This document shows, one piece after another, positions 13,214-51,747 of a DNA stretch of 64,000 bases. The translations under genes were made by a program, and so were the position numbers. The stretch's first letter is position 1, and each line of letters begins with the position of its first letter. A model generated the notes under the pieces. That model did no database searches. It was not told the DNA's origin and worked only from the letters and a program-made list of their open reading frames with translations. This DNA is from Azolla caroliniana (taxonomy: Eukaryota > Plantae > Polypodiophyta): contig JBHGNT010000005.1 of assembly GCA_043228905.1 (NCBI GenBank), positions 12,958,001 to 13,022,000 on the forward strand, given 5' to 3'.

Positions 13214-13229
13214 AGGAGACCACCGATTC

Positions 13230-14224: not shown

Positions 14225-14261
14225 AAGATAAAAAGTTTCAATTGTTTTTTTTTTTTTTTAC

Positions 14262-14340
14262 TTCTATGGAGTATCCAATATCTTCAATTCCCCTACCTGA
14301 ATCTTCTTCAAACACAAACTCGTGTTCCAAATTCAGGCCA
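14262..14340 (-). pseudogene. rpoB: rpoB 3' end, second copy
   Basis: Reverse complement of about 496-570. Confidence 0.8.
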
Positions 14341-15157: not shown

Positions 15158-15335
15158 TGTAGAGGTTGGACAAGTTAAGCGGTTCTTGATTCAGCTACGT
15201 GAGTATATAACAACCAATAAACCTCAATTTGGTGAAATCATTCGTTCTACCAAGACGTTTACAGAACAGGCAGAAACTATCTCAAAAGAAGCAATTAAAG
15301 AGTCAATAGAACTATTTTTACTGCAAGAAAAGTAA
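15158..15335 (+). pseudogene. atpA: atpA 3' end
   Basis: [38 protein letters not shown]...LFLLQEK*. Confidence 0.92.
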
Positions 15336-15436
15336 CTAGCTATTTTTTTTTGCGTGAGTGGGCGGAGAGCATGGAGATTTCAACTCTCCAACCACGTTCT
15401 CCACACACGCATGGCTATAACTATAAGGAAGGCAAC

Positions 15437-15508
15437 TACATCCAATAGGATTCGAACCTATACTTAAGGTTTAGAAGACCTCTGCCCTATCCATTAGACG
15501 ATGGATGC
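15437..15508 (-). tRNA. trnR-UCU: plastid trnR-UCU copy (NUPT)
   Basis: GCATCCATCGTCTAATGGATAGGGCAGAGGTCTTCTAAACC...GGTTCGAATCCTATTGGA. Confidence 0.9.
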
Positions 15509-16209
15509 ACTTTTCTATCTAGTCGATAGTCAACTATCAAGAAGCTAGAGCAAGAGTACCATATCGCAAACACACAAGAGTTTTTTTTCGTTCATGACAC
15601 GGTTTAGAAACAATAAAGAAAAGCAAGATCGTTTTGGATAACCCTTTCACCCCTACGTTCTATTTTTAGCGGGTAGTGGGAATCGAACCCACATCATTAG
15701 CTTGGAAGGCTAAGGGTTATAGTCAATGCCAATTTCTTTTTATGACACCTCTAATTCAGAACCGAACATGAAAATCTCTATTCATTCGGCTCCTTTATGG
15801 AAAATTAAGGTAGATGTCAAAGCATATGGCATGCTTTTTTCTACCAACTGGCAGGGGTTCCTCACCTCGTCTCATAAGGAAAGTGGAGATAACGAAAGCC
15901 TATTACTTTTTGGAATCCCCCCCACTTAAAAAATTCTCTTATTCAATGAACCTCTTTCTATTATAAGCCCGGGGACTTCACTATCAAAACTTGTATGATA
16001 GCACGTGAGTTCATCAAAAGGGGTTTTAATTAATTAGTGAGATACAGAATATATATACATAAGGGTATTAATGAAGATTTGAAAATATTTTACATAAGGG
16101 TATTATCAATTATGCTGGAAAAAAAATTACGTAAGCCCATGAAATATTAGATATTTCAATGAGATAGTAAAGAATATATTATGCAAAGAATACTCAAATT
16201 TGAAGTGGC

Positions 16210-17067
16210 ATACATACATACATACATACATATACATGCATGCATCCATATATACCTACATTCAAACATTACATCCATGAATATGTATATACATACATAC
16301 ATTACACCCATTTATACATGCATGCTGACTAAACATAAATATATATTACCATATGTAAATATGTACATACACATACATACATGCATTACATACTACATAC
16401 ATATTAAAATTGGCCATATATATTGACATACATATATAGATAATACATATATAAAAATTACATATTACATTTATACATACACTTCCTTACAAATATATTT
16501 TATATATTACATATTACACACAATTATATACAAATGCAAATATACAAACCAAACACACACACAAAAAAATTCATATTATATATAATAATATATATATATA
16601 TATATTATATACACATACATACACATACACACATTCCATACATACAATACAATACAATATGTACATACATACACACACAAACATAACACACATCACACAT
16701 GCATATATACCTACAAGCTACATTCATATATCACACATCACACATGCATATATATCTACATCCATGAATATGTATATACATACATTACACTCATTTATAT
16801 ATACATATTAACTAAACATAAATATATGTACAAATATATATTACCATATGTAAATATGTACATAATACATAAAATAAAATTACATATTACATACATATAT
16901 ACATACACAAATGCATATATACATACAAAACACTCAAAAATAAATTACATATTATATATATGTATACACATACACATACATATTAACACCAAAAGGCTAA
17001 GATTACATACTATATATATACAAATCTTCATACTTACAAACAAGTTACATATATTACATATATATAC
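16210..17067. repeat. Degenerate (CA/TA)-rich low-complexity tract
   Basis: TACA/CACA/TATA mosaics, very G-poor plus strand. Confidence 0.85.
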
Positions 17068-17457
17068 ACGTGCACCATAGTTCCTAATATTCGCGTACGT
17101 CCAATTTATTGGACGTACGCAAACGTTTGCAAACGTACGCGTATGATACGCGATATTTGTTTGGTTTTTTTTTTTTTGACTTTTTTTTGGTTTTTTTAAT
17201 TTTTGATATTCATAATATTTTGTGAATAGAAGTGACATCTGACACACATACACACACTCTCTCTCTCTCTCTCACACGAGAATTGACAGATTTTCTCTCT
17301 CTACAAAATCTAGATATCTAATATACATATTACATACTCCCTCACACAAACAAAACCCATAGCTCCTCTCTCTCTCTCTCTCTCTCTCTAGAGTCTAGAT
17401 ATACACTCAATCATTGTCTCCTCACACATGCAAAACAGGGCTTCTCTCTCTAGACCA

Positions 17458-17502
<45 letters not shown>

Positions 17503-17667
17503 TCACACACACACACACACTATGTACACCCAGTGTTGCCTTTTGACGGCTAACATTGCCTGTCATGAGAACGGTATTCCAAAATTTTTGCCCGTCAAAT
17601 TAACGGTTTGTAAAAAAAAATGCCCTTCAAAAAGTAAATACATCGAATATTTGTACGAAACAATATA

Positions 17668-19953
17668 TTATATCCTTCTATCCTTTGCATCTTTCCAAAT
17701 TTCATGTACACGATCCCATTGTATTTCTTCAATGCGTGGCCCATTCAATGAGACTCGCATTAAATCATCTAAATGCTCTATATTCAATCGATTTCTTTTC
17801 ATCTCTTTGATGAGATTTTGCTTAGAGAACCCTCTCTCACACGAAACTGTGCTAGAAGGAATAACCAAAGTAGCTTGCCATAATTTCATCAAATGAGGGA
17901 AACTATCTTGCCAATCCTTCATTTTGCAAAACATACGCCAAGCTTCATGCATAGTATAGCCTTCACAATTTAAACGTAAAGTGTCAACAAACCTATAGAG
18001 TTCCATTTCACAAGCCTTTGCATCATGTGAAATTTGAGGACATGCATTGACATCAACATTTGGCTGTAAGTGAGAAATCAAAATTCCCAACCATGTCTTT
18101 GCTTTACTATCCCTAATCACATCATCATCTGCATAATGGCATGGGCTGAATAATTTTGCTGCATTGAAGAGGCTTAAGTCAGGGAATCTTGCATTTAGTC
18201 CATCAATAACATTTTGCACATAATTTTGAGATAGTTTAATACAACTTTCAAGTGATCCATCTATAAATGGCCTCATTCCCTTAGATTTTGCAATAGTGGG
18301 ATTTGGATCATTTTGACTTGCTTTATCCATAGGAATTTGTTTGAAGTATAGTTCATGTCTATATGTAACGCCATCTTTATCCTCTATTTCCAAAAACCCA
18401 ACTTTAGAACATCTTAAGAACTTGGATAAATACATTGTTCCATCCGCAAATGTGTCATTTCTCAAGAAAGACCTCCGCAAATTAGAAATTGTAATATCAA
18501 TTTCTGCACCAATTGAAGTTACATCCAAATTCTCTTTTTGAAGTTTCAAGCTCAAGATATTCATCAAATGCAACACATCAGCCATGATACAAAAGCAAAA
18601 TTGCACACTATAGATACAAGCTTTATTATACCACTCGTTTAAGTTCTCTTTCTTCCAAATAGTAAGTATTGCAAGCATTATACTCACTAGTCTTTCCATG
18701 ACTTGACCACGTGACAACCAACGAATATTATGAATTTGTAATGGTCTATGAGCATCCAATTGCATTTGTTCCAAGAGCTCTAAAATTTCATGTGTCCTTT
18801 TGGTACTATTGTTAGCCCATGTATATACCTTATTTGCAATTTTTTCTACAAGAATGAGCTCAGGGATATCTTTAGATACATCTAAAATAACCAATGCTTC
18901 TCTATGAGCAATACAATGTACACCAACCAAATTTGGGATATCATTTTTCATTAATGTTACTGTTCCAATTTCACTACCAATCATTGATGATGCACCATCA
19001 GTTGCCAATCCGATCAACTTGTTCATGTTGAGGCATCGATCGCCTAATAGATGCTTAACATGTTCATATATAGTTCTACCTTTACCATTGGGAATTTTCA
19101 GCAAACCCATATATTCAGTTTGCTTAGGCCCACAACCACCACATTGCAAATATGTAACATACATAATGAGATGCAACTCTAATCCATTGTCAGTACTTTC
19201 ATCTAGCATCAAAGAGTAGTATGGGGAATTTATTAGGTTTGAGCTTTGAATTTCTAGAAGATATTTCCCGAAGGCAACCAAAAATTCATATCCCCCATAT
19301 CTACTAGTATAAGATATATAATCATGTTGCTTAGGCATATTAGGCACCTCTAGTAGCACAGCCAAATCACATAATTCTTGGTATGTAGCGATAGACAAAT
19401 CTTTTTTTGCAATAAAGTACATGAGTTTCATTGTTGTTATGACCTTATTTTTGTTAATATCATCCAATTGTGATACATGCTTTGAGATGGACATTGCTTT
19501 CCCTTCAACATCACATATCCACTTTGATGCACATAATTTATGACCACTTGAGTTGACATGGGTCAAAATTGCATCAAGTTGCAAAGTAATGCATCTAGAA
19601 CCAAGACCCCAAGGCCCAGGACTAGCGTATTTCTCACACCATGCACATTTCATTAATGTTTTGTCTCCTTGCACAATGCATCTTATCCATGGGAATTTAT
19701 CTCTCCATGCTTCACGGAATTTTCTCTTAGGCTTTTCTTTAGTTATATTAGAGGAACAACTCTCTCGAGTTAAACTCTCTAAATCAGTCCCAAACATATC
19801 CATATCCTCATTTGAATCATTGTTTAGATTTATGTCATTGGTATCGTTGGGTGGTTTCCATGCAAACATCGCACTGATGGTTCGTTGGTTTTTTCTTTTA
19901 GGAGCCATAATTATTCTGAATAAGAAGAAATGGGTCATGTAAGAAAAGATCAT
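17668..19953 (-). CDS. hAT transposase, ZNF862-like (likely start MAPKRK at 19908)
   Basis: N-terminal Zn-finger-like FPWI..CAWC..H..H, LMLDESTD, LATDGAS, HCIAH, RWLS, SCERGFS dimerisation domain; uninterrupted 761-aa ORF. Confidence 0.93.
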   Translation of the reverse strand: MIFSYMTHFFLFRIIMAPKRKNQRTISAMFAWKPPNDTNDINLNNDSNEDMDMFGTDLESLTRESCSSNITKEKPKRKFREAWRDKFPWIRCIVQGDKTLMKCAWCEKYASPGPWGLGSRCITLQLDAILTHVNSSGHKLCASKWICDVEGKAMSISKHVSQLDDINKNKVITTMKLMYFIAKKDLSIATYQELCDLAVLLEVPNMPKQHDYISYTSRYGGYEFLVAFGKYLLEIQSSNLINSPYYSLMLDESTDNGLELHLIMYVTYLQCGGCGPKQTEYMGLLKIPNGKGRTIYEHVKHLLGDRCLNMNKLIGLATDGASSMIGSEIGTVTLMKNDIPNLVGVHCIAHREALVILDVSKDIPELILVEKIANKVYTWANNSTKRTHEILELLEQMQLDAHRPLQIHNIRWLSRGQVMERLVSIMLAILTIWKKENLNEWYNKACIYSVQFCFCIMADVLHLMNILSLKLQKENLDVTSIGAEIDITISNLRRSFLRNDTFADGTMYLSKFLRCSKVGFLEIEDKDGVTYRHELYFKQIPMDKASQNDPNPTIAKSKGMRPFIDGSLESCIKLSQNYVQNVIDGLNARFPDLSLFNAAKLFSPCHYADDDVIRDSKAKTWLGILISHLQPNVDVNACPQISHDAKACEMELYRFVDTLRLNCEGYTMHEAWRMFCKMKDWQDSFPHLMKLWQATLVIPSSTVSCERGFSKQNLIKEMKRNRLNIEHLDDLMRVSLNGPRIEEIQWDRVHEIWKDAKDRRI

Positions 19954-20590
19954 ACCATCAGTTCAAAACAATCACTAGCATCATTAAACCCATACATATT
20001 AGTTATGACCTATTGGGCAATGAGATTTTACATGAATATAATTCCCAAACTTTTGCCCTTAAAGAGGAGAGCAATACTAGTTTTGATGGACTAGTAAAAG
20101 AATTTGGTGGTATATCTACTTCATCTAGAACTCAACAACTAAAACCAATGAAAGCCTAGAAAAGGCGTGACAAGAGAGCAAACCAAGAAGCTAAGAGAGA
20201 ACAAAGAATTCAAGAAAAGCAAAACAATGTGGTGAGTGATCGGATGGTGGAAAACGAATTGCTTGAAGGAAAATAAATTGCTTGAAGGTGTATCATCCCA
20301 CACCATCAAGGAACCATAGGTGCAATCAAAAGAAGAAAACATGACACAAGTACGAGCAACATTCGTAGTTAACAAAAGCAACAATGATATTAGGCAAGCC
20401 ATTCTAAATTTCCGTAGAGGGAAATATAAGAATGATTTAGCCATTAATAGAGTCGGAAAATGCTCTGGCCATCAACGTTGGATATGTAGTAATTTCCTAA
20501 CCATAGGAAATAACTATTGATATGATGAGATGGATCATTGTTAAAAGTTGGGGATTTTTATTGATTTTTATTGAGACAATAAACATTAGT

Positions 20591-20611
20591 CTCTATTAAT
20601 CTAAAGTTCAT

Positions 20612-20653
<42 letters not shown>

Positions 20654-20768
20654 GCAGGCAGAAGAAGAAGAAGAAGAAGAAGAAGAAGAAGATCCTCTAT
20701 TATCTAAAGTTCATACCAGAGAGAGAGAGAGAGAGAGAGACGACACAGGTGGAAGAAGAAGAAGATCC
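20591..20768 (+). repeat. Two-copy tandem unit CTCTATT(A)ATCTAAAGTTCATACCAG(AG)n...(GAA)nGATCC
   Basis: Read directly; the second unit runs into RPS7. Confidence 0.85.
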
Positions 20769-21322
20769 ATAAGGAGAAAAGCCTCGAGCCTGATGATTTT
20801 GAAGAGTCTGTTGCACAGGCTCTCTTTGATCTCGAGAACACTAACCAGGAGCTAAGAAGTGACCTAAGGGATCTATTCATCAATTCTGCAAAGCAAATAG
20901 ATATCAATGGAAGCAGGAAGGCTGTCATAATCCATGTGCCATACAGACTGAGGAAATCTTTCAAGAAAATTCACAACCGTCTTGTCCGTGAACTTGAGAA
21001 GAAATTCAGTGGCAAGGATGTTATTTTCATTGCGACAAGGCGCATTATGAGGCCTCCCAAGAAGGGAACAGTTGTTGCTCGTCCTAGAAGCCGCACATTA
21101 ACATCTGTTCATGAGGCTATTCTTGAAGATTTAGTCTATCCAGCAGAGATTGTGGGAAAAAGAGTTCGTTTCCGTCTGGATGGTTCACGTATAATGCGAG
21201 TATATTTGGACCCCAAGGAGAGGAACAATACTGAGTATAAGTTAGAGACTTTTGGTGTTGCTTATAAGAAGCTAACTGGAAAAGAAGTAGTGTTCGAGTA
21301 CCCTGTACAGGAAGCTGCTTAA
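20759..21322 (+). pseudogene. RPS7: Captured intronless cytosolic 40S ribosomal protein S7 (eS7) coding sequence, lacking the ATG and first few codons
   Basis: [32 protein letters not shown]...VPYRLRKSF...[15 protein letters not shown]...[19 protein letters not shown]; 187 uninterrupted codons; in-frame TAA at 20705 upstream with no ATG between. Confidence 0.93.
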
Positions 21323-21575
21323 AGACGTTTTATCTTGGGATAGTTTTTGAGGTTTCAGTTTTTTTTTTACACTTTATGGTTTAAAATTCCTTTTGTAGGA
21401 ATTGAAGGTATCAATGGAGTCTTCATGTGTATGCTTATCCCCTGTAAGGATACATTAGAGACATCCTTTTTTCTGCAATCTATTTCTGGAAGTGAGGCAA
21501 ATATGAGCAGCATGCAAATATATTCATTAAGGATCCCATTGCTTCAATGAGGATGGTTTAGTCTATTTTAATCTT

Positions 21576-21625
<50 letters not shown>

Positions 21626-22315
21626 CTACCTTAGATGGGTGAACAGGACTGTTGTAGGAGATGTTGCTGAATCTATGAGTAGCAAGCAACGAGCAACAAG
21701 CTTCGAGTAGGGATAGTGAGCACTGAGTTGCGAGCTTCCAACAAGGTGCAGGGTTGAGGGAGCAACGAACAAACAGGGAAAATGGGGGAAAAGGGGGAAA
21801 AGGGGGGAAAAGGGAAAGGAAGGTCTTAGATGGGGAAACGGGGAATTGGGAAGTAAAGATTCATAATTTAGACTCTATTAGTTTTTTACCTTTTTGTTAC
21901 ACACATAGTGACATATGTGAGCCTTTCAAATTCCTACACTCCCAATGCAACTTGAACAATTTGTTCCTACTACCTAGGACTATACTACTATAGTATTGGT
22001 CTTAGTAAAATTTGACGGTATTATGAAATTTTAAGCCTTCATTTTTACGTTTTCATAAAACATATGCCCGTCAAGATTGACGGTTTCATTTTAAAATTAA
22101 CTTTCATATACGGTTAAATTTGCCAAAAACGTTCAAAACGGCCGTCAAAAGGCAACACTGTGTACACCATATACACCATATGTATATATAATATATCTAT
22201 GTACCGCGTATGGATTTCAATCATACTTGGAGCCTTTTCACGTATGAGTATGATACGAATATTGGCGTTTGAGTATGACACGAATGGGACGTATGGCTAG
22301 AACTATGACGTGCAC

Positions 22316-22516
22316 GCACATAAATAAATTAGATATTACATAGCATATATTACACAATATTCAAATTTACACATACATAAATTACATATATACATATATA
22401 GATACATACATAGATATACATATTACATATGTACATACATATTCCACATATCACCATATATATATGTATAGATTATACTGGACCATACAAACCAGAATAC
22501 TTATATATATACATAC

Positions 22517-22563
<47 letters not shown>

Positions 22564-23439
22564 TAGATATATGTATACTTACACATATCACCATATATAT
22601 ATGTACATATGCCTACAATGTTAAAAGTTTTACAAACATACATCCATACACATATATACATACATTACATGCATGCATACACATAAATATGTTACATACA
22701 CATACATACATACATTTCATCACAGACTACAATACATACATGTATACTTACACATAAATAAATTAGATATTACATAGCACATAATCCATACCTATTACAC
22801 AATATACAAATTTATACATATCTTCATTTATACATTGCTACACATACATACACATATATACATTAGATATCTACATAGATATTATGCATATATTACAATC
22901 ACACATCAATACACATTGAATCATGTACATTTGCATATGCATATATGCATACACATACATACATGACATATGCATATATGCATACACATATATACATTCG
23001 TACATGGACATGCATATAGTCTTTTATACATTGCTACATGTACATACACATACATACATACATATATTAGATATATACACACATACGTATATATATATAT
23101 ACACCTACATATAGTCTTCTATACATACACACACATTACATATGGATATATGCAAACACATATGTACATTCGTACATGGACATACATATATTCATTTATA
23201 CATTGCTACATATACATACACATATATATAGATAGATATTATGCACATATTACAATCACACATCCATACACATTGAATCATGTACATTTGCATATGCATA
23301 TATGCATACACATATATACATATTACAAACAAATATCCACACACACACACACACACACAAATATACATACATTACATATTACATATGTACATTCATATTT
23401 TATTCATTGAAGCATACATATTTTATGCATACATTACAT

Positions 23440-23484
<45 letters not shown>

Positions 23485-24614
23485 TTCATTCATTCATTCA
23501 TGCATACATTATGTGCACATACATACATAACATACATTCATACTAAACATACATTCAAACATTCATGTTTTTTTATTTAGATATTTGCCGCCTCCTCCTT
23601 TGCTCCCTCCTCTTCTTTGCTCATTTCTGCGATTGCTTCTTCTCCCCTTCTTTTTGTCCTCATTTTGCCGCCGCCTCTGTTCTCATTTTGCCGCCGCCAC
23701 CGCTCGCCTTGTGCCGCTTTTGCTCACCATTATTCTCTGTTGGGGCTGCCACAACTATTCTACAAATATTTTACAGGTACACATAAGTACAAACATAAAC
23801 CAACACATAAATTCTTAGCCACACACACACACGGGCCATACATACAATAAACGAAATTAATACATTACAATACAATATGTACATATATACACACATACCT
23901 ATGTACACATACTTACACATTTACACATATAACACATACATACAATACAATATGTACACACATACATACATACACATGGAATACAAACAATACATACATA
24001 AACACACACACATACATGTGTAGAATATACATACACACATGTACACACATATATATTGTATGGAACATACATACACACATACCTATATACACATATATAC
24101 ACTTACATACATACACATTTACACATATAACACATACATACAATACAATATGTGCACACATACATACATAAACACACACACACACACACACACACACGTG
24201 TAGAATATACATACACATATGGACACATATATATGTTGTATGGAACATATATACACACACACAAACATAACACACAACACACACATGAAATACATACAAT
24301 ACAAAACATAAAACACAACACACACATGAAATACACATGAAACACATATATGTTGTATGGAACATACATACACACATGTACACACATATATGTTGTATGG
24401 AACATACATACACACATGTACACACATATATGTTGTATGGAACATACATACACACATGTACACACATATATGTTGTATGGAACATACATACACACGTACA
24501 CACATATATGTTGTATGGAACATACATATACACATACCTATATACACTTACATACATACACATTTACACATATAACACATACATACAATACAATATGTGC
24601 ACACATACATACAT

Positions 24615-24673
<59 letters not shown>

Positions 24674-25048
24674 TAGAATATACATACACATATGGACACA
24701 TATATATGTTGTATGGAACATATATACACACACACAAACATAACACACAACACACACATGAAATACATACAATACAAAACATAACACACAACACACACAT
24801 GAAATACACATGAAATACACATGAAATACACATGAAATACATATATGTTGTATGGAACATACATACACACATACCTATATACACATATATACACTTACAT
24901 ACATACACATTTACACATATAACACATACATACAATACAATATGTGCACACATACATACATAAACACACACACACAAACATGTAGAATATACATACACAT
25001 ATGGACACATATATATGTTGTATGGAACATACATACACACACACAAAC
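22316..25048. repeat. CA/TA-rich satellite with 40-bp minisatellite and larger repeated blocks
   Basis: ACACATATATGTTGTATGGAACATACATACACACATGTAC in tandem at about 24340-24520; repeated blocks at about 23900-25050. Confidence 0.9.
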
Positions 25049-25775
25049 ATATTGTTGAGGATGAGACTGTGATTAAGCGGAATGTTAAGTGGGATAGCTC
25101 AAATGATTTACTTTTGGGTTTTTGTGGGTTGAAGTCATCCAATCATCAATGTGTCTCATCATGTATGATAAAGGTGGGTGACTCTAATGTTGGTTATTAA
25201 ACCATTGTCAGCTCCTTTAAAGACTATGTGGTTGGACACTATGCTAGGGTGTTAATTACGAATCCTCTTCACCCTAAACTTCCACGATTAGTATTGGTTG
25301 TACAATGTACATGTAATTGCTTTGATGCAGATTTTGTAAAATGCCAATGGAATGAAGTGGAAACTTTATGGGAAAAACACCTCTCCACAAGTATTGGGCC
25401 AATTGTTGGACATGCATCTGATGGAGATAGTAGGAGAAGAAAGATTATGCTTCAAGTTTACTTAACCCCAAGCATATGCTTAAGATATAAATTGCCTTGG
25501 GATGGTTGGATCTTCACAGGTCAAATGCATAATGATATGGTAAGTTGTCTTCATGATCAAGATTTCATCCATAATGGAAAGAAACTTGTGAATGCACTAG
25601 ATAATCCCTCAAGATAATTAGTAATTGGGGATGTATGGATCACATTGAATCATGTGTCTTTGGTATATAATAACTTCTCTATTGATGCACATGGCTTAAG
25701 GGAATGTGATATTACGAGAGAAGATAGGCAAAATTGGGTTGGAGCTCAAAGAATTGCAAGTAGAAATGTAGAAAC
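25049..25775 (+). pseudogene. DDE transposase core remnant, P-element-like
   Basis: One frame with two stops: VEDETVIK...NPLHPKLP...GHASDGDSRRRK...DQDFIHNGKKLVN...DRQNWVGAQRIAS. Confidence 0.65.
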
Positions 25776-26987
25776 CAAATATAAACCTACGGTATTCCAA
25801 ATATATTTTTTGATTTCTTTAATTCCATGTATATTAAGATAATATTTACTTCCATGTATATTAAGATTTCTTGCTTTTGTTGTTACATTTTATGATATAG
25901 GTCCAATGTTGAAGATGGAAACGACATGAAATTTACAGCCTAAAATGAACTTCTTAGGGTTTTCTTTTTATATACTCAGTCTTTATAAGGGTAACCTTTA
26001 TTGCAATAAGTTTTTTAAGTAGATATTGCAAATAACAAAATGATTTATTTTATTTCATTTTGATTTGGGTAAGATTATGTGAATAGATGATGTCTTACAT
26101 TTCAAATGGAAATATGAAGTAGGTTGCCATTTGTTTGATCAATGTGTTTGAGAAAAAATAATGTTATGGCTTTATATGAGTCTATATCCATGAAACCAAA
26201 CATAATGTTAATTTGTTAGTAATTTCATTATTGATATGCATTTTGGATTGTTCCATATGTGCTCTTTGAGATGTATGTGTTAAGTTCAAGATTGTTTTAT
26301 TGTAAATTACATTGTTTTTTATCACTCAATGTTCTTCATACGTCTCAATAAACTAAAAACAAAAACTTATATGTGGCTTGTATATGTTATACCTGTAGTG
26401 TTTTTGGGTAATGTTTCCTAATTGTGTGTACATTACTTTGTACTTTACACATTGTGTTTTCAATCTATGTGGCACTTAATGAAGCATTTCTAGGAATTTG
26501 CATATGATGTTTAATATCGATTCATAATTTTGCGAGTCATCAATTGTAAAGATGGTCATTGATCCCTTCTAGGATCGCAACCTATGTGTGCATGTATATT
26601 TTATATGTAAGGGTATTTAAAATGGGTGGTTATCAAAAAATATATTGGTAATAAGGGGTATTTTTATTAATCTTTTTTCTACAGAAAGGTTACTAAAATA
26701 GTAAAAATCATACGTATAAGGGGTTTATAAATGATGTCATGAACGCACGTGATACAACCTTCTTATGTATAGTGGAGTCCCCGGGATTATAAGGTTATTG
26801 CAAATAAAAGTATCCATAATATCTATGTCAGTTTAATCTTTTTTCAAGAGTACAAACTTTTTAGATGATCCCGCTGGTAAGATTATTACCTATTATGAGT
26901 CCCAACTAAGATACACTTATGGAACATGATTTTTTTACTTCCAGTTACTTCGTTCATTTTTTTTATGAAAAGCAGAAATCTTTAGGG

Positions 26988-27009
26988 AAGCAGTGGTATC
27001 AACGCAGAG
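26988..27009 (+). other. Library adapter contamination (SMART/ISPCR-type primer)
   Basis: Exact AAGCAGTGGTATCAACGCAGAG; copy 2 has unrelated native sequence at about 51199-51223. Confidence 0.95.
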
Positions 27010-27534
27010 AGCAATCGCTTCTTCAATGGAAAAAGCCAGAAAATCTTGATAAACCAAGATTATTCTTTCTAGGACTGTCAAGCTTGGAGTTTTTTTTTCC
27101 AAGGTTTAGTGACGATGAAACAGACATTTTTAGCATCTACCCATAGATGTTTACCCATCTTCTTTAAGAAAAACTTTGGGCTTCCGGGTATTTTAAAAGT
27201 TTCGCTTCGTTATTCGTCGACCTTGCTACGCAAGCAAAAATAATGGGAATAACCTAATTTTGTACCCATAATATTTTGTTTTAGAGAAGTTTACTTGTTC
27301 TTCATAGAAAAAAAGCTTCTTGAGTCAATTCAGCCAAAAAACCGGTTTGAAGGATCCTTTGACTAGTCGGCCCAAAGTAGGACGAATCACACTTTTACCA
27401 CTAAACCATACCCGCCACAATCTAATTGTATTACATAGATGGTTCCTCTATCTAATTCTAATTATGCTCGAGGGACCCCCGATCACTCTCTGAGGGGTCC
27501 CCCATGGACTATGCTGCTTAGCCCCAAGTGATAG

Positions 27535-29803
<2,269 letters not shown>

Positions 29804-39697: not shown

Positions 39698-41646
39698 ACT
39701 TTTCTATCTAGTCGATAGTCAACTATCAAGAAGCTAGAGCAAGAGTACCATATCGCAAACACACAAGAGTTTTTTTTCGTTCATGACACGGTTTAGAAAC
39801 AATAAAGAAAAGCAAGATCGTTTTGGATAACCCTTTCACCCCTACGTTCTATTTTTAGCGGGTAGTGGGAATCGAACCCACATCATTAGCTTGGAAGGCT
39901 AAGGGTTATAGTCAATGCCAATTTCTTTTTATGACACCTCTAATTCAGAACCGAACATGAAAATCTCTATTCATTCGGCTCCTTTATGGAAAATTAAGGT
40001 AGATGTCAAAGCATATGGCATGCTTTTTTCTACCAACTGGCAGGGGTTCCTCACCTCGTCTCATAAGGAAAGTGGAGATAACGAAAGCCTATTACTTTTT
40101 GGAATCCCCCCCACTTAAAAAATTCTCTTATTCAATGAACCTCTTTCTATTATAAGCCCGGGGACTTCACTATCAAAACTTGTATGATAGCACGTGAGTT
40201 CATCAAAAGGGGTTTTAATTAATTAGTGAGATACAGAATATATATACATAAGGGTATTAATGAAGATTTGAAAATATTTTACATAAGGGTATTATCAATT
40301 ATGCTGGAAAAAAAATTACGTAAGCCCATGAAATATTAGATATTTCAATGAGATAGTAAAGAATATATTATGCAAAGAATACTCAAATTTGAAGTGGCAT
40401 ACATACATACATACATACATATACATGCATGCATCCATATATACCTACATTCAAACATTACATCCATGAATATGTATATACATACATACATTACACCCAT
40501 TTATACATGCATGCTGACTAAACATAAATATATATTACCATATGTAAATATGTACATACACATACATACATGCATTACATACTACATACATATTAAAATT
40601 GGCCATATATATTGACATACATATATAGATAATACATATATAAAAATTACATATTACATTTATACATACACTTCCTTACAAATATATTTTATATATTACA
40701 TATTACACACAATTATATACAAATGCAAATATACAAACCAAACACACACACAAAAAAATTCATATTATATATAATAATATATATATATATATATTATATA
40801 CACATACATACACATACACACATTCCATACATACAATACAATACAATATGTACATACATACACACACAAACATAACACACATCACACATGCATATATACC
40901 TACAAGCTACATTCATATATCACACATCACACATGCATATATATCTACATCCATGAATATGTATATACATACATTACACTCATTTATATATACATATTAA
41001 CTAAACATAAATATATGTACAAATATATATTACCATATGTAAATATGTACATAATACATAAAATAAAATTACATATTACATACATATATACATACACAAA
41101 TGCATATATACATACAAAACACTCAAAAATAAATTACATATTATATATATGTATACACATACACATACATATTAACACCAAAAGGCTAAGATTACATACT
41201 ATATATATACAAATCTTCATACTTACAAACAAGTTACATATATTACATATATATACACGTGCACCATAGTTCCTAATATTCGCGTACGTCCAATTTATTG
41301 GACGTACGCAAACGTTTGCAAACGTACGCGTATGATACGCGATATTTGTTTGGTTTTTTTTTTTTTGACTTTTTTTTGGTTTTTTTAATTTTTGATATTC
41401 ATAATATTTTGTGAATAGAAGTGACATCTGACACACATACACACACACTCTCTCTCTCTCTCACACGAGAACTGACAGATTTTCTCTCTCTACAAAATCT
41501 AGATATCTAATATACATATTACATACTCCCTCACACAAACAAAACCCATAGCTCCTCTCTCTCTCTCTCTCTCTCTCTAGAGTCTAGATATACACTCAAT
41601 CATTGTCTCCTCACACATGCAAAACAGGGCTTCTCTCTCTAGACCA

Positions 41647-41689
<43 letters not shown>

Positions 41690-41854
41690 TCACACACACA
41701 CACACACTATGTACACCCAGTGTTGCCTTTTGACGGCTAACATTGCCTGTCATGAGAACGGTATTCCAAAATTTTTGCCCGTCAAATTAACGGTTTGTAA
41801 AAAAAAATGCCCTTCAAAAAGTAAATACATCGAATATTTGTACGAAACAATATA

Positions 41855-44140
41855 TTATATCCTTCTATCCTTTGCATCTTTCCAAATTTCATGTACACGA
41901 TCCCATTGTATTTCTTCAATGCGTGGCCCATTCAATGAGACTCGCATTAAATCATCTAAATGCTCTATATTCAATCGATTTCTTTTCATCTCTTTGATGA
42001 GATTTTGCTTAGAGAACCCTCTCTCACACGAAACTGTGCTAGAAGGAATAACCAAAGTAGCTTGCCATAATTTCATCAAATGAGGGAAACTATCTTGCCA
42101 ATCCTTCATTTTGCAAAACATACGCCAAGCTTCATGCATAGTATAGCCTTCACAATTTAAACGTAAAGTGTCAACAAACCTATAGAGTTCCATTTCACAA
42201 GCCTTTGCATCATGTGAAATTTGAGGACATGCATTGACATCAACATTTGGCTGTAAGTGAGAAATCAAAATTCCCAACCATGTCTTTGCTTTACTATCCC
42301 TAATCACATCATCATCTGCATAATGGCATGGGCTGAATAATTTTGCTGCATTGAAGAGGCTTAAGTCAGGGAATCTTGCATTTAGTCCATCAATAACATT
42401 TTGCACATAATTTTGAGATAGTTTAATACAACTTTCAAGTGATCCATCTATAAATGGCCTCATTCCCTTAGATTTTGCAATAGTGGGATTTGGATCATTT
42501 TGACTTGCTTTATCCATAGGAATTTGTTTGAAGTATAGTTCATGTCTATATGTAACGCCATCTTTATCCTCTATTTCCAAAAACCCAACTTTAGAACATC
42601 TTAAGAACTTGGATAAATACATTGTTCCATCCGCAAATGTGTCATTTCTCAAGAAAGACCTCCGCAAATTAGAAATTGTAATATCAATTTCTGCACCAAT
42701 TGAAGTTACATCCAAATTCTCTTTTTGAAGTTTCAAGCTCAAGATATTCATCAAATGCAACACATCAGCCATGATACAAAAGCAAAATTGCACACTATAG
42801 ATACAAGCTTTATTATACCACTCGTTTAAGTTCTCTTTCTTCCAAATAGTAAGTATTGCAAGCATTATACTCACTAGTCTTTCCATGACTTGACCACGTG
42901 ACAACCAACGAATATTATGAATTTGTAATGGTCTATGAGCATCCAATTGCATTTGTTCCAAGAGCTCTAAAATTTCATGTGTCCTTTTGGTACTATTGTT
43001 AGCCCATGTATATACCTTATTTGCAATTTTTTCTACAAGAATGAGCTCAGGGATATCTTTAGATACATCTGAAATAACCAATGCTTCTCTATGAGCAATA
43101 CAATGTACACCAACCAAATTTGGGATATCATTTTTCATTAATGTTACTGTTCCAATTTCACTACCAATCATTGATGATGCACCATCAGTTGCCAATCCGA
43201 TCAACTTGTTCATGTTGAGGCATCGATCGCCTAATAGATGCTTAACATGTTCATATATAGTTCTACCTTTACCATTGGGAATTTTCAGCAAACCCATATA
43301 TTCAGTTTGCTTAGGCCCACAACCACCACATTGCAAATATGTAACATACATAATGAGATGCAACTCTAATCCATTGTCAGTACTTTCATCTAGCATCAAA
43401 GAGTATTATGGGGAATTTATTAGGTTTGAGCTTTGAATTTCTAGAAGATATTTCCCGAAGGCAACCAAAAATTCATATCCCCCATATCTACTAGTATAAG
43501 ATATATAATCATGTTGCTTAGGCATATTAGGCACCTCTAGTAGCACAGCCAAATCACATAATTCTTGGTATGTAGCGATAGACAAATCTTTTTTTGCAAT
43601 AAAGTACATGAGTTTCATTGTTGTTATGACCTTATTTTTGTTAATATCATCCAATTGTGATACATGCTTTGAGATGGACATTGCTTTCCCTTCAACATCA
43701 CATATCCACTTTGATGCACATAATTTATGACCACTTGAGTTGACATGGGTCAAAATTGCATCAAGTTGCAAAGTAATGCATCTAGAACCAAGACCCCAAG
43801 GCCCAGGACTAGCGTATTTCTCACACCATGCACATTTCATTAATGTTTTGTCTCCTTGCACAATGCATCTTATCCATGGGAATTTATCTCTCCATGCTTC
43901 ACGGAATTTTCTCTTAGGCTTTTCTTTAGTTATATTAGAGAAACAACTCTCTCGAGTTAAACTCTCTAAATCAGTCCCAAACATATCCATATCCTCATTT
44001 GAATCATTGTTTAGATTTATGTCATTGGTATCGTTGGGTGGTTTCCATGCAAACATCGCACTGATGGTTCGTTGGTTTTTTCTTTTAGGAGCCATAATTA
44101 TTCTGAATAAGAAGAAATGGGTCATGTAAGAAAAGATCAT
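41855..44140 (-). pseudogene. hAT transposase copy 2 with premature stop
   Basis: TAC>TAA at 43406-43408 splits the ORF into 244 aa and 514 aa. Confidence 0.9.
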
Positions 44141-44798
44141 ACCATCAGTTCAAAACAATCACTAGCATCATTAAACCCATACATATTAGTTATGACCTAT
44201 TGGGCAATGAGATTTTACATGAATATAATTCCCAAACTTTTGCCCTTAAAGAGGAGAGCAATACTAGTTTTGATGGACTAGTAAAAGAATTTGGTGGTAT
44301 ATCTACTTCATCTAGAACTCAACAACTAAAACCAATGAAAGCCTAGAAAAGGCGTGACAAGAGAGCAAACCAAGAAGCTAAGAGAGAACAAAGAATTCAA
44401 GAAAAGCAAAACAATGTGGTGAGTGATCGGATGGTGGAAAACGAATTGCTTGAAGGAAAATAAATTGCTTGAAGGTGTATCATCCCACACCATCAAGGAA
44501 CCATAGGTGCAATCAAAAGAAGAAAACATGACACAAGTACGAGCAACATTCGTAGTTAACAAAAGCAACAATGATATTAGGCAAGCCATTCTAAATTTCC
44601 GTAGAGGGAAATATAAGAATGATTTAGCCATTAATAGAGTCGGAAAATGCTCTGGCCATCAACGTTGGATATGTAGTAATTTCCTAACCATAGGAAATAA
44701 CTATTGATATGATGAGATGGATCATTGTTAAAAGTTGGGGATTTTTATTGATTTTTATTGAGACAATAAACATTAGTCTCTATTAATCTAAAGTTCAT

Positions 44799-44836
<38 letters not shown>

Positions 44837-44947
44837 GCAGGCAGAAGAAGAAGAAGAAGAAGAAGAAGAAGAAGAAGAAGATCCTCTATTATCTAAAGTT
44901 CATACCAGAGAGAGAGAGAGAGAGAGAGACGACACAGGTGGAAGAAG

Positions 44948-45511
44948 AAGAAGATCCATAAGGAGAAAAGCCTCGAGCCTGATGATTTTGAAGAGTCTGT
45001 TGCACAGGCTCTCTTTGATCTCGAGAACACTAACCAGGAGCTAAGAAGTGACCTAAGGGATCTATTCATCAATTCTGCAAAGCAAATAGATATCAATGGA
45101 AGCAGGAAGGCTGTCATAATCCATGTGCCATACAGACTGAGGAAATCTTTCAAGAAAATTCACAACCGTCTTGTCCGTGAACTTGAGAAGAAATTCAGTG
45201 GCAAGGATGTTATTTTCATTGCGACAAGGCGCATTATGAGGCCTCCCAAGAAGGGAACAGTTGTTGCTCGTCCTAGAAGCCGCACATTAACATCTGTTCA
45301 TGAGGCTATTCTTGAAGATTTAGTCTATCCAGCAGAGATTGTGGGAAAAAGAGTTCGTTTCCGTCTGGATGGTTCACGTATAATGCGAGTATATTTGGAC
45401 CCCAAGGAGAGGAACAATACTGAGTATAAGTTAGAGACTTTTGGTGTTGCTTATAAGAAGCTAACTGGAAAAGAAGTAGTGTTCGAGTACCCTGTACAGG
45501 AAGCTGCTTAA
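44948..45511 (+). pseudogene. RPS7: Captured RPS7 (eS7), copy 2
   Basis: Same translation as 20759-21322. Confidence 0.92.
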
Positions 45512-45764
45512 AGACGTTTTATCTTGGGATAGTTTTTGAGGTTTCAGTTTTTTTTTTACACTTTATGGTTTAAAATTCCTTTTGTAGGAATTGAAGGTAT
45601 CAATGGAGTCTTCATGTGTATGCTTATCCCCTGTAAGGATACATTAGAGACATCCTTTTTTCTGCAATCTATTTCTGGAAGTGAGGCAAATATGAGCAGC
45701 ATGCAAATATATTCATTAAGGATCCCATTGCTTCAATGAGGATGGTTTAGTCTATTTTAATCTT

Positions 45765-45842
<78 letters not shown>

Positions 45843-46733
45843 CTACCTTAGATGGGTGAACAGGACTGTTGTAGGAGATGTTGCTGAATCTATGAGTAGC
45901 AAGCAGCGAGCAACAAGCTTCGAGTAGGGATAGTGAGCACTGAGTTGCGAGCTTCCAACAAGGTGCAGGGTTGAGGGAGCAACGAACAAACAGGGAAAAT
46001 GGGGGAAAAGGGGGAAAAGGGGGGAAAAGGGAAAGGAAGGTCTTAGATGGGGAAACGGGGAATTGGGAAGTAAAGATTCATAATTTAGACTCTATTAGTT
46101 TTTTACCTTTTTGTTACACACATAGTGACATATGTGAGCCTTTCAAATTCCTACACTCCCAATGCAACTTGAACAATTTGTTCCTACTACCTAGGACTAT
46201 ACTACTATAGTATTGGTCTTAGTAAAATTTGACGGTATTATGAAATTTTAAGCCTTCATTTTTACGTTTTCATAAAACATATGCCCGTCAAGATTGACGG
46301 TTTCATTTTAAAATTAACTTTCATATACGGTTAAATTTGCCAAAAACGTTCAAAACGGCCGTCAAAAGGCAACACTGTGTACACCATATACACCATATGT
46401 ATATATAATATATCTATGTACCGCGTATGGATTTTAATCATACTTGGAGCCTTTTCACGTATGAGTATGATACGAATATTGGCGTTTGAGTATGACACGA
46501 ATGGGACGTATGGCTAGAACTATGACGTGCACGCACATAAATAAATTAGATATTACATAGCATATATTACACAATATTCAAATTTACACATACATAAATT
46601 ACATATATACATATATAGATACATACATAGATATACATATTACATATGTACATACATATTCCACATATCACCATATATATATGTATAGATTATACTGGAC
46701 CATACAAACCAGAATACTTATATATATACATAC

Positions 46734-46772
<39 letters not shown>

Positions 46773-47648
46773 TAGATATATGTATACTTACACATATCAC
46801 CATATATATATGTACATATGCCTACAATCTTAAAAGTTTTACAAACATACATCCATACACATATATACATACATTACATGCATGCATACACATAAATATG
46901 TTACATACACATACATACATACATTTCATCACAGACTACAATACATACATGTATACTTACACATAAATAAATTAGATATTACATAGCACATAATCCATAC
47001 CTATTACACAATATACAAATTTATACATATCTTCATTTATACATTGCTACACATACATACACATATATACATTAGATATCTACATAGATATTATGCATAT
47101 ATTACAATCACACATCAATACACATTGAATCATGTACATTTGCATATGCATATATGCATACACATACATACATGACATATGCATATATGCATACACATAT
47201 ATACATTCGTACATGGACATGCATATAGTCTTTTATACATTGCTACATGTACATACACATACATACATACATATATTAGATATATACACACATACGTATA
47301 TATATATATACACCTACATATAGTCTTCTATACATACACACACATTACATATGGATATATGCAAACACATATGTACATTCGTACATGGACATACATATAT
47401 TCATTTATACATTGCTACATATACATACACATATATATAGATAGATATTATGCACATATTACAATCACACATCCATACACATTGAATCATGTACATTTGC
47501 ATATGCATATATGCATACACATATATACATATTACAAACAAATATCCACACACACACACACACACACAAATATACATACATTACATATTACATATGTACA
47601 TTCATATTTTATTCATTGAAGCATACATATTTTATGCATACATTACAT

Positions 47649-47697
<49 letters not shown>

Positions 47698-48382
47698 TTC
47701 ATTCATTCATGCATGCATACATTATATGCACATACATACATAACATACATTCATACTAAACATACATTCAAACATTCATGTTTTTTTATTTAGATATTTG
47801 CCGCCTCCTCCTTTGCTCCCTCCTCTTCTTTGCTCATTTCTGCGATTGCTTCTTCTCCCCTTCTTTTTGTCCTCATTTTGCCGCCGCCTCTGTTCTCATT
47901 TTGCCGCCGCCACCGCTCGCCTTGTGCCGCTTTTGCTCACCATTATTCTCTGTTGGGGCTGCCACAACTATTCTACAAATATTTTACAGGTACACATAAG
48001 TACAAACATAAACCAACACATAAATTCTTAGCCACACACACACACGGGCCATACATACAATAAACGAAATTAATACATTACAATACAATATGTACATATA
48101 TACACACATACCTATGTACACATACTTACACATTTACACATATAACACATACATACAATACAATATGTACACACATACATACATACACATGGAATACAAA
48201 CAATACATACATAAACACACACACATACATGTGTAGAATATACATACACACATGTACACACATATATATTGTATGGAACATACATACACACATACCTATA
48301 TACACATATATACACTTACATACATACACATTTACACATATAACACATACATACAATACAATATGTGCACACATACATACAT

Positions 48383-48437
<55 letters not shown>

Positions 48438-48851
48438 TAGAATATACATACACATATGGACACATATATATGTTGTATGGAACATATATACACACACACA
48501 AACATAACACACAACACACACATGAAATACATACAATACAAAACATAAAACACAACACACACATGAAATACACATGAAACACATATATGTTGTATGGAAC
48601 ATACATACACACATGTACACACATATATGTTGTATGGAACATACATACACACATGTACACACATATATGTTGTATGGAACATACATACACACATGTACAC
48701 ACATATATGTTGTATGGAACATACATACACACGTACACACATATATGTTGTATGGAACATACATATACACATACCTATATACACTTACATACATACACAT
48801 TTACACATATAACACATACATACAATACAATATGTGCACACATACATACAT

Positions 48852-48906
<55 letters not shown>

Positions 48907-49259
48907 TAGAATATACATACACATATGGACACATATATATGTTGTATGGAACATATATACACACACACAAACATAACACACAACACACACATGAAATACA
49001 TACAATACAAAACATAACACACAACACACACATGAAATACACATGAAATACATATATGTTGTATGGAACATACATACACACATACCTATATACACATATA
49101 TACACTTACATACATACACATTTACACATATAACACATACATACAATACAATATGTGCACACATACATACATAAACACACACACACAAACATGTAGAATA
49201 TACATACACATATGGACACATATATATGTTGTATGGAACATACATACACACACACAAAC

Positions 49260-49986
49260 ATATTGTTGAGGATGAGACTGTGATTAAGTGGAATGTTAAG
49301 TGGGATAGCTCAAATGATTTACTTTTGGGTTTTTGTGGGTTGAAGTCATCCAATCATCAATGTGTCTCATCATGTATGATAAAGGTGGGTGACTCTAATG
49401 TTGGTTATTAAACCATTGTCAGCTCCTTTAAAGACTATGTGGTTGGACACTATGCTAGGGTGTTAATTACGAATCCTCTTCACCCTAAACTTCCACGATT
49501 AGTATTGGTTGTACAATGTACATGTAATTGCTTTGATGCAGATTTTGTAAAATGCCAATGGAATGAAGTGGAAACTTTATGGGAAAAACACCTCTCCACA
49601 AGTATTGGGCCAATTGTTGGACATGCATCTGATGGAGATAGTAGGAGAAGAAAGATTATGCTTCAAGTTTACTTAACCCCAAGCATATGCTTAAGATATA
49701 AATTGCCTTGGGATGGTTGGATCTTCACAGGTCAAATGCATAATGATATGGTAAGTTGTCTTCATGATCAAGATTTCATCCATAATGGAAAGAAACTTGT
49801 GAATGCACTAGATAATCCCTCAAGATAATTAGTAATTGGGGATGTATGGATCACATTGAATCATGTGTCTTTGGTATATAATAACTTCTCTATTGATGCA
49901 CATGGCTTAAGGGAATGTGATATTACGAGAGAAGATAGGCAAAATTGGGTTGGAGCTCAAAGAATTGCAAGTAGAAATGTAGAAAC
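49260..49986 (+). pseudogene. P-like transposase remnant, copy 2
   Basis: Same motifs as 25049-25775 (one R>W change). Confidence 0.63.
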
Positions 49987-51747
49987 CAAATATAAACCTA
50001 CGGTATTCCAAATATATTTTTTGATTTCTTTAATTCCATGTATATTAAGATAATATTTACTTCCATGTATATTAAGATTTCTTGCTTTTGTTGTTACATT
50101 TTATGATATAGGTCCAATGTTGAAGATGGAAACGACATGAAATTTACAGCCTAAAATGAACTTCTTAGGGTTTTCTTTTTATATACTCAGTCTTTATAAG
50201 GGTAACCTTTATTGCAATAAGTTTTTTAAGTAGATATTGCAAATAACAAAATGATTTATTTTATTTCATTTTGATTTGGGTAAGATTATGTGAATAGATG
50301 ATGTCTTACATTTCAAATGGAAATATGAAGTAGGTTGCCATTTGTTTGATCAATGTGTTTGAGAAAAAATAATGTTATGGCTTTATATGAGTCTATATCC
50401 ATGAAACCAAACATAATGTTAATTTGTTAGTAATTTCATTATTGATATGCATTTTGGATTGTTCCATATGTGCTCTTTGAGATGTATGTGTTAAGTTCAA
50501 GATTGTTTTATTGTAAATTACATTGTTTTTTATCACTCAATGTTCTTCATACGTCTCAATAAACTAAAAACAAAAACTTATATGTGGCTTGTATATGTTA
50601 TACCTGTAGTGTTTTTGGGTAATGTTTCCTAATTGTGTGTACATTACTTTGTACTTTACACATTGTGTTTTCAATCTATGTGGCACTTAATGAAGCATTT
50701 CTAGGAATTTGCATATGATGTTTAATATCGATTCATAATTTTGCGAGTCATCAATTGTAAAGATGGTCATTGATCCCTTCTAGGATCGCAACCTATGTGT
50801 GCATGTATATTTTATATGTAAGGGTATTTAAAATGGGTGGTTATCAAAAAATATATTGGTAATAAGGGGTATTTTTATTAATCTTTTTTCTATAGAAAGG
50901 TTACTAAAATAGTAAAAATCATACGTATAAGGGGTTTATAAATGATGTCATGAACGCACGTGATACAACCTTCTTATGTATAGTGGAGTCCCCGGGATTA
51001 TAAGGTTATTGCAAATAAAAGTATCCATAATATCTATGTCAGTTTAATCTTTTTTCAAGAGTACAAACTTTTTAGATGATCCCGCTGGTAAGATTATTAC
51101 CTATTATGAGTCCCAACTAAGATACACTTATGGAACATGATTTTTTTACTTCCAGTTACTTCGTTCATTTTTTTTATGAAAAGCAGAAATCTTTAGGGCA
51201 ATGTTTTTTACCGAGTCATGGAAGCAATCGCTTCTTCAATGGAAAAAGCCAGAAAATCTTGATAAACCAAGATTATTCTTTCTAGGACTGTCAAGCTTGG
51301 AGTTTTTTTTTCCAAGGTTTAGTGACGATGAAACAGACATTTTTAGCATCTACCCATAGATGTTTACCCATCTTCTTTAAGAAAAACTTTGGGCTTCCGG
51401 GTATTTTAAAAGTTTCGCTTCGTTATTCGTCGACCTTGCTACGCAAGCAGAAATAATGGGAATAACCTAATTTTGTACCCATAATATTTTGTTTTAGAGA
51501 AGTTTACTTGTTCTTCATAGAAAAAAAGCTTCTTGAGTCAATTCAGCCAAAAAACCGGTTTGAAGGATCCTTTGACTAGTCGGCCCAAAGTAGGACGAAT
51601 CACACTTTTACCACTAAACCATACCCGCCACAATCTAATTGTATTACATAGATGGTTCCTCTATCTAATTCTAATTATGCTCGAGGGACCCCCGATCACT
51701 CTCTGAGGGGTCCCCCATGGACTATGCTGCTTAGCCCCAAGTGATAG

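Follow-up and report, generated by a model that had tools for sequence, protein, structure and literature searches.

What kind of transposon occupies positions 15968 to 26785 of the 64,000-nucleotide stretch of the Azolla caroliniana genome analysed here (contig JBHGNT010000005.1, positions 12,958,001 to 13,022,000; hereafter the window), and does it represent the P-type transposons in a land plant? The initial annotation, made from the sequence alone, had described a deletion derivative with 17-bp terminal inverted repeats (TIRs) of CCCGGGG type, an 8-bp target site duplication (TSD), an empty site and the remnant of a P-related, possibly undescribed transposase. We conclude, with a probability of roughly 0.85, that the element is a non-autonomous copy, with two deletions, of a cut-and-paste transposon of about 10 kb whose transposase is predicted to have the P fold and which likely belongs to an old, vertically inherited lineage of seed-free land plants.

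The ends of the element, like its 8-bp duplications, copy family, deletions and nesting, were read directly from the DNA, and the annotated structure was borne out. The TIRs pair at 16 of 17 bases, with a further inverted match at positions 34 to 47 from either end, and the 8 bp at 15960-15967 recur without mismatch (8/8) at 26786-26793. Both flanks are plastid-derived and contain fragments of plastid genes. A group II intron match (15716-15794), presumably the intron of trnG given plastid gene order, is located 170 bases away from the insertion, next to tRNA-Arg(UCU) at 15436-15509. An empty site was found at four of the seven other plastid-derived loci that carry the left flank (L273-L276); these pass directly to the right flank through a single 8-mer and match at 38, 38, 38 and 35 of 40 bases. 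Among the remaining three loci, one showed a partial continuation (29/40) and two had no continuation into the right flank.

The same ends define a family of copies. The 17-mer end has 63 exact matches in the 523-Mb genome, as compared with none for the reversed control, and the remnant protein has 54 matches. The left and right 240-base ends gave 257 and 264 genome candidates, of which 40 of each were scored. Ends were read at retrieved loci for 29 left and 39 right termini, resulting in 22 pairs, with seven left ends partnerless among these loci; the pairs include both copies of the element in the window (15968-26785 and 40157-50996), which were treated as one insertion. All 22/22 pairs carry an 8-bp duplication in which no more than one base differs, and in 17/22 it is perfect. 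At the same threshold, no paired ends were found for 7 or 9 bp, and none of 460 crossed control pairs gave a duplication. The first two bases were CC at 29/29 left ends and 38/39 right ends. Base counts in the flanks no more than hint at a possible purine-pyrimidine target pattern.

A full-length copy of 10,181 bases was recovered on genome contig C2 (G000:C2:23838239-23848419). Its A/C-rich interior of about 4.6 kb is followed by a single long gene that starts at base 4900. Introns are predicted at 5633-5712 and 9080-9178, and translation would end naturally at codon 1373, corresponding to a spliced transposase of about 1,370 amino acids. Alignment to this copy demonstrated that the window element is a deletion derivative, as annotated: it keeps gene bases 6920-7639 and has lost bases from about 4750 to 6920 and from 7639 to 9194, which include the predicted catalytic glutamate E746. 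Having lost its start, its N-terminal half and this glutamate, the window copy is non-autonomous; it is a dead element without a noteworthy function. Between its remnant and other copies, identity is 92-99%, mostly 95-98.5%. The 3' deletion junction is common to 10 of 30 transposase loci and the 5' junction to 13 of 30. Since the junctions recur at many loci, the derivative itself must have spread, which requires transposase in trans.

The C2 copy carries five premature stops. In contigs assembled from other samples, at 96.5-97.2% identity, the second exon is open over 1,137-1,151 codons, and the first exon is open in two of three. Near-identical DNA was also present in sequencing runs of five organisms, none of the listed runs being recorded as RNA. 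Synonymous to non-synonymous counts for six copies against the C2 copy (for example, 34:62, 12:27 and 9:28) look close to neutral decay and are uninformative on selection. No second gene was evident among the open frames listed for 40 stretches, frames taken without a Pfam scan. A search of the genome with a relative from Riccia recovered the same family alone, and no relatives were found in plasmid and phage collections.

Some further features of the family were observed. A second deletion subfamily, in which full-length base 5097 is joined to 9548, accounted for 8/20 stretches (L303, L306, L308-L312 and L319); it is 85-92% identical and carries an interior segment missing from the C2 copy. 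In the window, a G+C-rich island of about 200 bases (23580-23780) interrupts the A/C-rich interior, is present in other copies and has splice-like sites on the + strand at its edges; it is possibly a 5' exon or the promoter of the transposase gene. At L069:2406-4496, a truncated copy is immediately preceded by a DUF7869 transposase-like gene.

The full-length copy also decides whether the 10.8-kb unit could instead be a hAT element, its 8-bp duplication made by a hAT transposase nested within it and the P-like piece being cargo. That hAT transposase is the only intact transposase in the interval, and hAT elements make 8-bp duplications too. It has, however, its own ends and duplication (17531-22160) and many copies elsewhere, and it shows no similarity to the P-type remnant (best E 1.6). 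The C2 copy has the same ends as the window element, neither nested element, and the P-type gene alone; lacking any hAT gene, it refutes this reading, to which we assign virtually no probability. The annotated absence of hAT motifs is true of the remnant, but not of the interval, which contains the unrelated nested hAT.

The relationship of the transposase to known enzymes was examined through its fold and active site, both of which are predictions. The remnant frame (25048-25776) contains EDET, SDG, DFIHNGKK.VN and DRQNW..AQR in the order originally noted, together with two in-frame TAA stops. A core model of 500 residues, for which 79 homologues were aligned, reached a predicted local distance difference test score (pLDDT) of 94.1 and a predicted template modelling score of 0.92. 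The top Foldseek match of this model was the Drosophila P transposase (6p5a; E 3.1e-11, template modelling score 0.60), with RAG1 second (E 1.7e-4). VIA-align against 48,161 chains likewise ranked P transposase first, with Z 26.4, a root-mean-square deviation (rmsd) of 3.6, 381 aligned residues and 13% identity, followed by RAG1 (Z 10.4), ISCth4 (9.0; rmsd 6.5, 247 aligned), Transib (8.8) and the hAT transposase Hermes (7.8; rmsd 7.8, 312 aligned). The 381 residues relate model positions 1-471 to P chain positions 159-565 and take in the insertion domain. The fold match spans the helix-turn-helix (HTH), RNase H and insertion domains.

Sequence profiles led to the same family. Profile A3, built from 49 more diverse relatives, found 6p5a from sequence (E 4e-7), with aligned blocks at D230, DxxH..K, KQKVK, DWFDIF and QD..E. 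In this alignment EDET pairs with FDEM, DxxHNGKK with DTPHLIK, DRQNW with AKQKV, and GSD..E with NQD..E, and the HTH aligns to 6p5a 102-247. The predicted triad D389, D509 and E746 (P0002 numbering) is kept in 75/76, 86/90 and 81/82 of the homologues with a residue at these positions; in the model the first is part of strand 75-83, the second follows strand 194-199 and the third sits in helix 434-443. Among language-model neighbours in the ESM Atlas, P-transposase clusters scored 0.95 and 10/10 of the best named matches were of the same family or clan; the top neighbours include unnamed Basidiomycota clusters (0.96). The predicted architecture is thus a P-type HTH followed by a split RNase H core, which an all-helical P-type insertion domain interrupts, and the fold match, profile A3 with the annotated motif pairs in register, and the language-model neighbours all uphold the proposed P relationship.

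Other superfamilies were compared on the same material. The element's own transposase has no Pfam match to hAT, MULE, CMC or KDZ families, and its core has no Pfam match of any kind at E<=5. The hAT dimerisation domain PF05699 was not found in it. No MULE domain was matched by Pfam, and the terminal repeats measure 17 bp, in contrast to the long ones of MULEs. According to PMC12730594, most members of the CMC/Transib/RAG1 group have 2-5-bp duplications and CA..TG ends; here the duplications are 8 bp and the ends CC. No KDZ structure appeared in the fold-match lists.

Homologues of the transposase were then placed by host. In the first search, 12 of 97 matches were informatively named: four from Adiantum nelumboides, six from Riccia sorocarpa and two from EukProt under GoldUCD identifiers, which we take to denote a jellyfish proteome. 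Clytia hemisphaerica emerged in later searches, as did a clade at greater distance that contains Amphimedon and proteins of the P HTH family, and a profile search returned 7,280 relatives at E<=0.001. An IQ-TREE phylogeny of 67 rows was picked from a 171-row FastTree tree, from which the plant group had been defined. The host family and three Adiantum rows group together with 100/99 support, within a 99/99 branch of 22 rows in which the only other named members are three Riccia rows. This topology would put the host among the ferns, and old vertical descent from early land plants fits it. Among the distant relatives, P0111, P0118, P0122, P0158, P0159 and the Amphimedon clade have the transposase fused to Tudor, C1, SAP, PHD or Ulp1-type (PF02902) domains.

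A recent horizontal transfer into the fern family from an aquatic animal or a fungus was weighed against this descent. Relatives at 35-37% identity occur in Clytia and the GoldUCD proteome, and more distant ones in Amphimedon. No seed-plant name appears among the named matches, which is weak evidence because most matches are nameless. P elements are known for horizontal transfer (PMC5751038). The nearest named relatives of the host protein are nevertheless from a fern (Adiantum, 48-54% identity) and a liverwort (Riccia, 37-47%), well above any named animal match. The branch order of host plus Adiantum versus Riccia mirrors plant kinship, and the near-identical DNA in five organisms counts against a recent event. 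We therefore consider recent transfer very improbable; early land plants may have acquired the lineage by a much older one.

The ends were also traced in related metagenome elements. Locus L198 holds a complete 6.1-kb element, 49% identical, with 26-bp inverted repeats, the same end type, an 8/8 duplication and an open frame of 1,520 amino acids. The pattern C-Y-C plus a G run gave 12 matches in 8/76 metagenome loci (two appear internal) versus two in reversed sequence. When 33 of 80 metagenome loci were scanned for inverted repeats with a duplication, L198 was the one clear element, and two further pairs were chance matches of low complexity. At L216:967-8467, where the transposase lies outside the plant branch (nearest P0052), C plus G-run ends are present on both sides, and the duplication is 7/8 to 8/8 depending on end placement. 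The end sequence is a trait of the lineage and, judging by these sequences, may mark a much wider one.

Several observations weigh against the P-type, vertically inherited lineage proposed here. No intact copy was found among the genome stretches examined. Structural identity to P transposase is 13-15%; blocks two and three of the A3 alignment score 6.3 and -1.3 bits, and D303 lies outside the aligned profile blocks and is paired by position. The narrower profile A2 and single-sequence searches of PDB did not find 6p5a. The Pfam P family has no match on the host protein or its close relatives; PF12017 (the P HTH) exceeds its cut-off in 3/33 and 1/39 of the more distant relatives and not in the host protein. 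In the plant branch, 15/22 rows are without a known host and 7/22 have one; the deep forks of the tree are unresolved and no canonical P sequence is included. Locus L200 has matching ends, but the duplication is absent (3/8).

The departures from canonical P count on the same side. No THAP family match was found in the N-terminal frames of the host or in 77 scanned relatives or locus frames. The N-terminal 350 residues contain two Cys/His clusters; a single-sequence model of exon 1 was unusable (pLDDT 39), and the Atlas gave no usable match for the N-terminal part of P0006. The ends begin with CC, not with CA as canonical P termini do. Characteristic of P transposases are a GTP-dependent reaction and a 17-nt stagger at the cleaved ends. 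Drosophila P contacts GTP through eight residues: D528, K385, K400, V401, S409, F443, D444 and N447 (PMC7776569). With a register taken from weakly scoring blocks, the D528 equivalent is kept in 77/82 sequences, the D444 equivalent is D or E in 84/88, and the S409 equivalent is S in 31/91. A like residue is thus present for D528, for D444 (D or E) and, in the host, for S409, and K385, K400, V401, F443 and N447 are replaced. The odds that the lineage needs GTP are about even. Since THAP and CA ends were looked for and neither was found, the lineage stands outside the canonical THAP-bearing, CA-ended P family, and is most suitably classed with the P superfamily, broadly understood, as a divergent branch.

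The main rival is that these departures define a superfamily of its own as the sister of P, alike in fold but having other ends, another DNA-binding module and no GTP cofactor. The missing THAP, the five replaced GTP contacts of eight and the 13-15% identity would suit such a rank, as would the C-Y-C plus G-run ends at 8/76 metagenome loci, including one outside the plant branch, and the size of the group: of its 7,280 relatives (E<=0.001), the 39 scanned mostly escape the Pfam P models. Against it, an unbroken chain of sequence similarity leads to P HTH family proteins and to Drosophila P itself, the fold match takes in the HTH, RNase H and insertion domains, and the duplication is 8 bp as in P. 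We regard a sister superfamily as unlikely; the difference from a branch of P would be one of rank more than of mechanism.

As a divergent P branch, the element very probably works like a P element. An intact copy would have supplied transposase in trans, and this enzyme would have bound the C-then-G-run ends, excised the element and inserted it into plastid-derived nuclear DNA with an 8-bp stagger. The N-terminal Cys/His clusters may bind subterminal sites, as THAP does for animal P elements. More tentatively, splicing from an early donor could yield a core-less N-terminal protein of 347 amino acids that binds the ends and represses, like the 66-kDa and KP proteins of Drosophila.

The proposed repressor derives from sequencing run X19, whose contigs contain three GT..AG joints: the 80-nt predicted first intron, a 109-nt intron towards the 3' end, and a skip of 3,157 nt that joins base 6021 to the acceptor at 9179, on the same contig as the first-intron joint. 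The skip removes the HTH, RNase H and insertion domains and meets a stop at the joint, predicting the 347-residue protein. The joint lists of three DNA runs, from which two joints were missing, contained none of the three, and none occurred as DNA in 190 genomic loci, of which 34-73 have the unspliced forms. In Drosophila, a splicing choice yields the 66-kDa repressor and deleted elements yield the 207-amino-acid KP repressor, according to PMC7776569. Several points count against a splice form here: X19 was treated as RNA by guess, the core-skipping joint comes from a single contig that extends 29 bases past it on the shorter side, and the 99-nt last-but-one intron of the long form was not seen spliced, X19 also having pieces of the core. 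By analogy with Drosophila, the short protein may bind the ends and repress transposition, a tentative proposal to which we give somewhat less than even odds. A further X19 joint, of 4,153 nt with non-canonical ends, probably derives from a deleted copy, and run X20 is probably DNA. Two RNA runs of another organism, covered at 12-13% of reads, gave no matching reads, too little to test expression.

Compared with Drosophila P (PDB 6p5a and 6pe2; PMC7776569), the family is alike in the HTH, split RNase H and helical insertion domain (predicted here, Z 26.4), the D..D..E triad, DxxH..K in register, the 8-bp duplication, short terminal plus subterminal inverted repeats and many internally deleted copies, and possibly also in a spliced short form. 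It differs in its size (10 kb and about 1,370 amino acids versus 2.9 kb and 751), plant host, CCC ends, two Cys/His clusters without THAP, five of eight GTP contacts replaced, and a long extra C-terminal region.

Other P-superfamily members, namely 1360/Hoppel, Galileo, THAP9 and zebrafish P-like elements, which would share the fold by way of Drosophila P and make 7-8-bp duplications, are described from animals, plus Trichomonas (PMC3698922; PMC7776569). P elements are reported from Chlamydomonas alone among 20 plants (bioRxiv 10.1101/2021.07.25.453727) and from the fungi Allomyces and Pucciniales (PMC5751038), and the Dfam label P-Fungi appears in the PlantRep supplement (PMC9035001). Like this lineage, the Chlamydomonas and fungal P elements lie outside animals, yet their hosts are not land plants. 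GingerRoot has a similar host range (seed-free plants and aquatic animals, not seed plants), but an unrelated, integrase-like transposase, a 6-bp duplication and long inverted repeats (PMC6839031). Lanisha, from the moss Ceratodon, is likewise a recently proposed cut-and-paste group of a seed-free plant (PMC8245031, PMC12730594). Its description, rather than a sequence comparison, sets Lanisha apart: it is EnSpm/CMC-like, has C(2)C and H(3-4)H motifs and belongs to a clade whose duplications are 2-5 bp.

Seven plant TIR superfamilies are named in PMC10741241, and seven plant DNA superfamilies in all in PMC6839031; P is in neither list. The term 'P element' was absent from the supplements of PMC6786969, one file of which was incomplete. 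No literature on land-plant P elements, or on transposons with these ends, was found in a search of mostly titles and the beginnings of abstracts. The annotated 'possibly undescribed' therefore stands as far as the literature, and its support reaches no further, Repbase and Dfam not being covered. Weighing against novelty is the automatic class TIR-P of PlantRep, with 192 matches in Azolla filiculoides and 0 in the other six of the seven fern and bryophyte rows displayed (PMC9035001); the label may or may not refer to this family. The elements described here form a real, divergent P-type lineage of seed-free plants; the class of enzyme is already known, and a database entry may exist.

The list of land-plant superfamilies is extended by this recently mobile, multi-copy fern family of P type, which has relatives in a second fern and in a liverwort, and standard libraries miss the lineage (no Pfam match). 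P is the sole transposase known to need GTP (PMC7776569), and the same fold with most GTP contacts replaced makes the role of GTP testable. A splice form that removes the core, if true, would parallel the control of Drosophila P across the animal-plant divide. A stronger proposal would be an undescribed, ancient P-type branch of seed-free plants that shares its ends with an aquatic-animal branch and was lost in seed plants, in which other zinc clusters replaced THAP, the use of GTP was perhaps changed or dropped, and a splicing switch to a repressor arose independently. We consider this combination doubtful; if true, it would provide a further superfamily for the land-plant list, a natural test of GTP and intact plant-native P transposases (e.g., that of L198).

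Table 1. Coordinates of the P-type element, its parts, the elements nested in it and its second copy, as positions in the window.
Feature	Position	Strand	Basis or remark
Whole element: non-autonomous deletion derivative of 10.2-kb P-type transposon, plus two nested insertions	15968..26785	+	alignment to full-length copy
Left 8-bp TSD	15960..15967	.	8/8 match to 26786-26793; single copy in empty sites L273-L276
Left TIR, CCCGGGG-type end, followed by subterminal inverted match at ~16001-16014	15968..15984	+	end comparison, genome-wide matches
Right TIR	26769..26785	-	end comparison, genome-wide matches
Right 8-bp TSD	26786..26793	.	8/8 match to left copy
A/C-rich simple-repeat interior, broken by nested elements; ~ bases 230-4750 of full-length copy	16200..25047	+	
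P-type transposase remnant: first two catalytic aspartates (predicted; codons 5, 125), DxxH..K block, start of helical insertion domain	25048..25769	+	
Element 3' end, joined to remnant by 1.55-kb deletion (full-length bases 7639 to 9194)	25768..26785	+	
Nested element A: 8-bp TIRs, 8-bp TSD (8/8), no own coding frame seen	17076..22307	.	
Nested element B: hAT, 20-bp TIRs, 8-bp TSD (8/8)	17531..22160	-	
Intact 745-amino-acid hAT transposase of B (zf-C17orf113, Dimer_Tnp_hAT)	17668..19905	-	
Intronless ribosomal protein S7 copy within B	20760..21322	+	Pfam S7e 1-182/182; intron-containing parent on C20
Second copy, same insertion; 19 substitutions, 94 gap columns in 10,876	40157..50996	+	

Beyond the initial annotation, the element was found to contain nested elements at 17076-22307 and 17531-22160, and a near-identical copy of it recurs at 40157-50996 (Table 1). 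The nested elements, B lying within A, make up 5,232 of the 10,818 bases, so that with the P-type element there are three layers of nesting. Element A is likely a non-autonomous hAT, and the full-length copy is unbroken at the corresponding site (base 1228). The family of hAT B is young, with 14 further full-length transposase matches at 96-100%, many of them stop-free.

A subfamily of this hAT carries an intronless copy of the ribosomal protein S7 gene (RPS7), in which the S7e domain is open. On C9, C10, C18 (two) and C22 there are five other copies (98-99%), each adjoining the hAT gene. The parent gene (C20:9142076-9145194) has five exon matches; therefore, a spliced cDNA was taken up by the DNA transposon and then spread.

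The second copy of the P-type element belongs to a 24.2-kb unit that occurs twice (14162-38251 and 38352-62464), at 99.4-99.8% identity and with a 100-N gap in between. The unit is a tandem duplication or an assembly duplicate, and the second element copy is thus possibly an assembly duplicate. Window positions 1-15967 and 26794-33000 consist of scrambled plastid-derived DNA with fragments resembling psaB, ndhB, ndhK, ycf2 and petA, named from reading the frames, amid which lie a Copia-like and a Gypsy-like retroelement.

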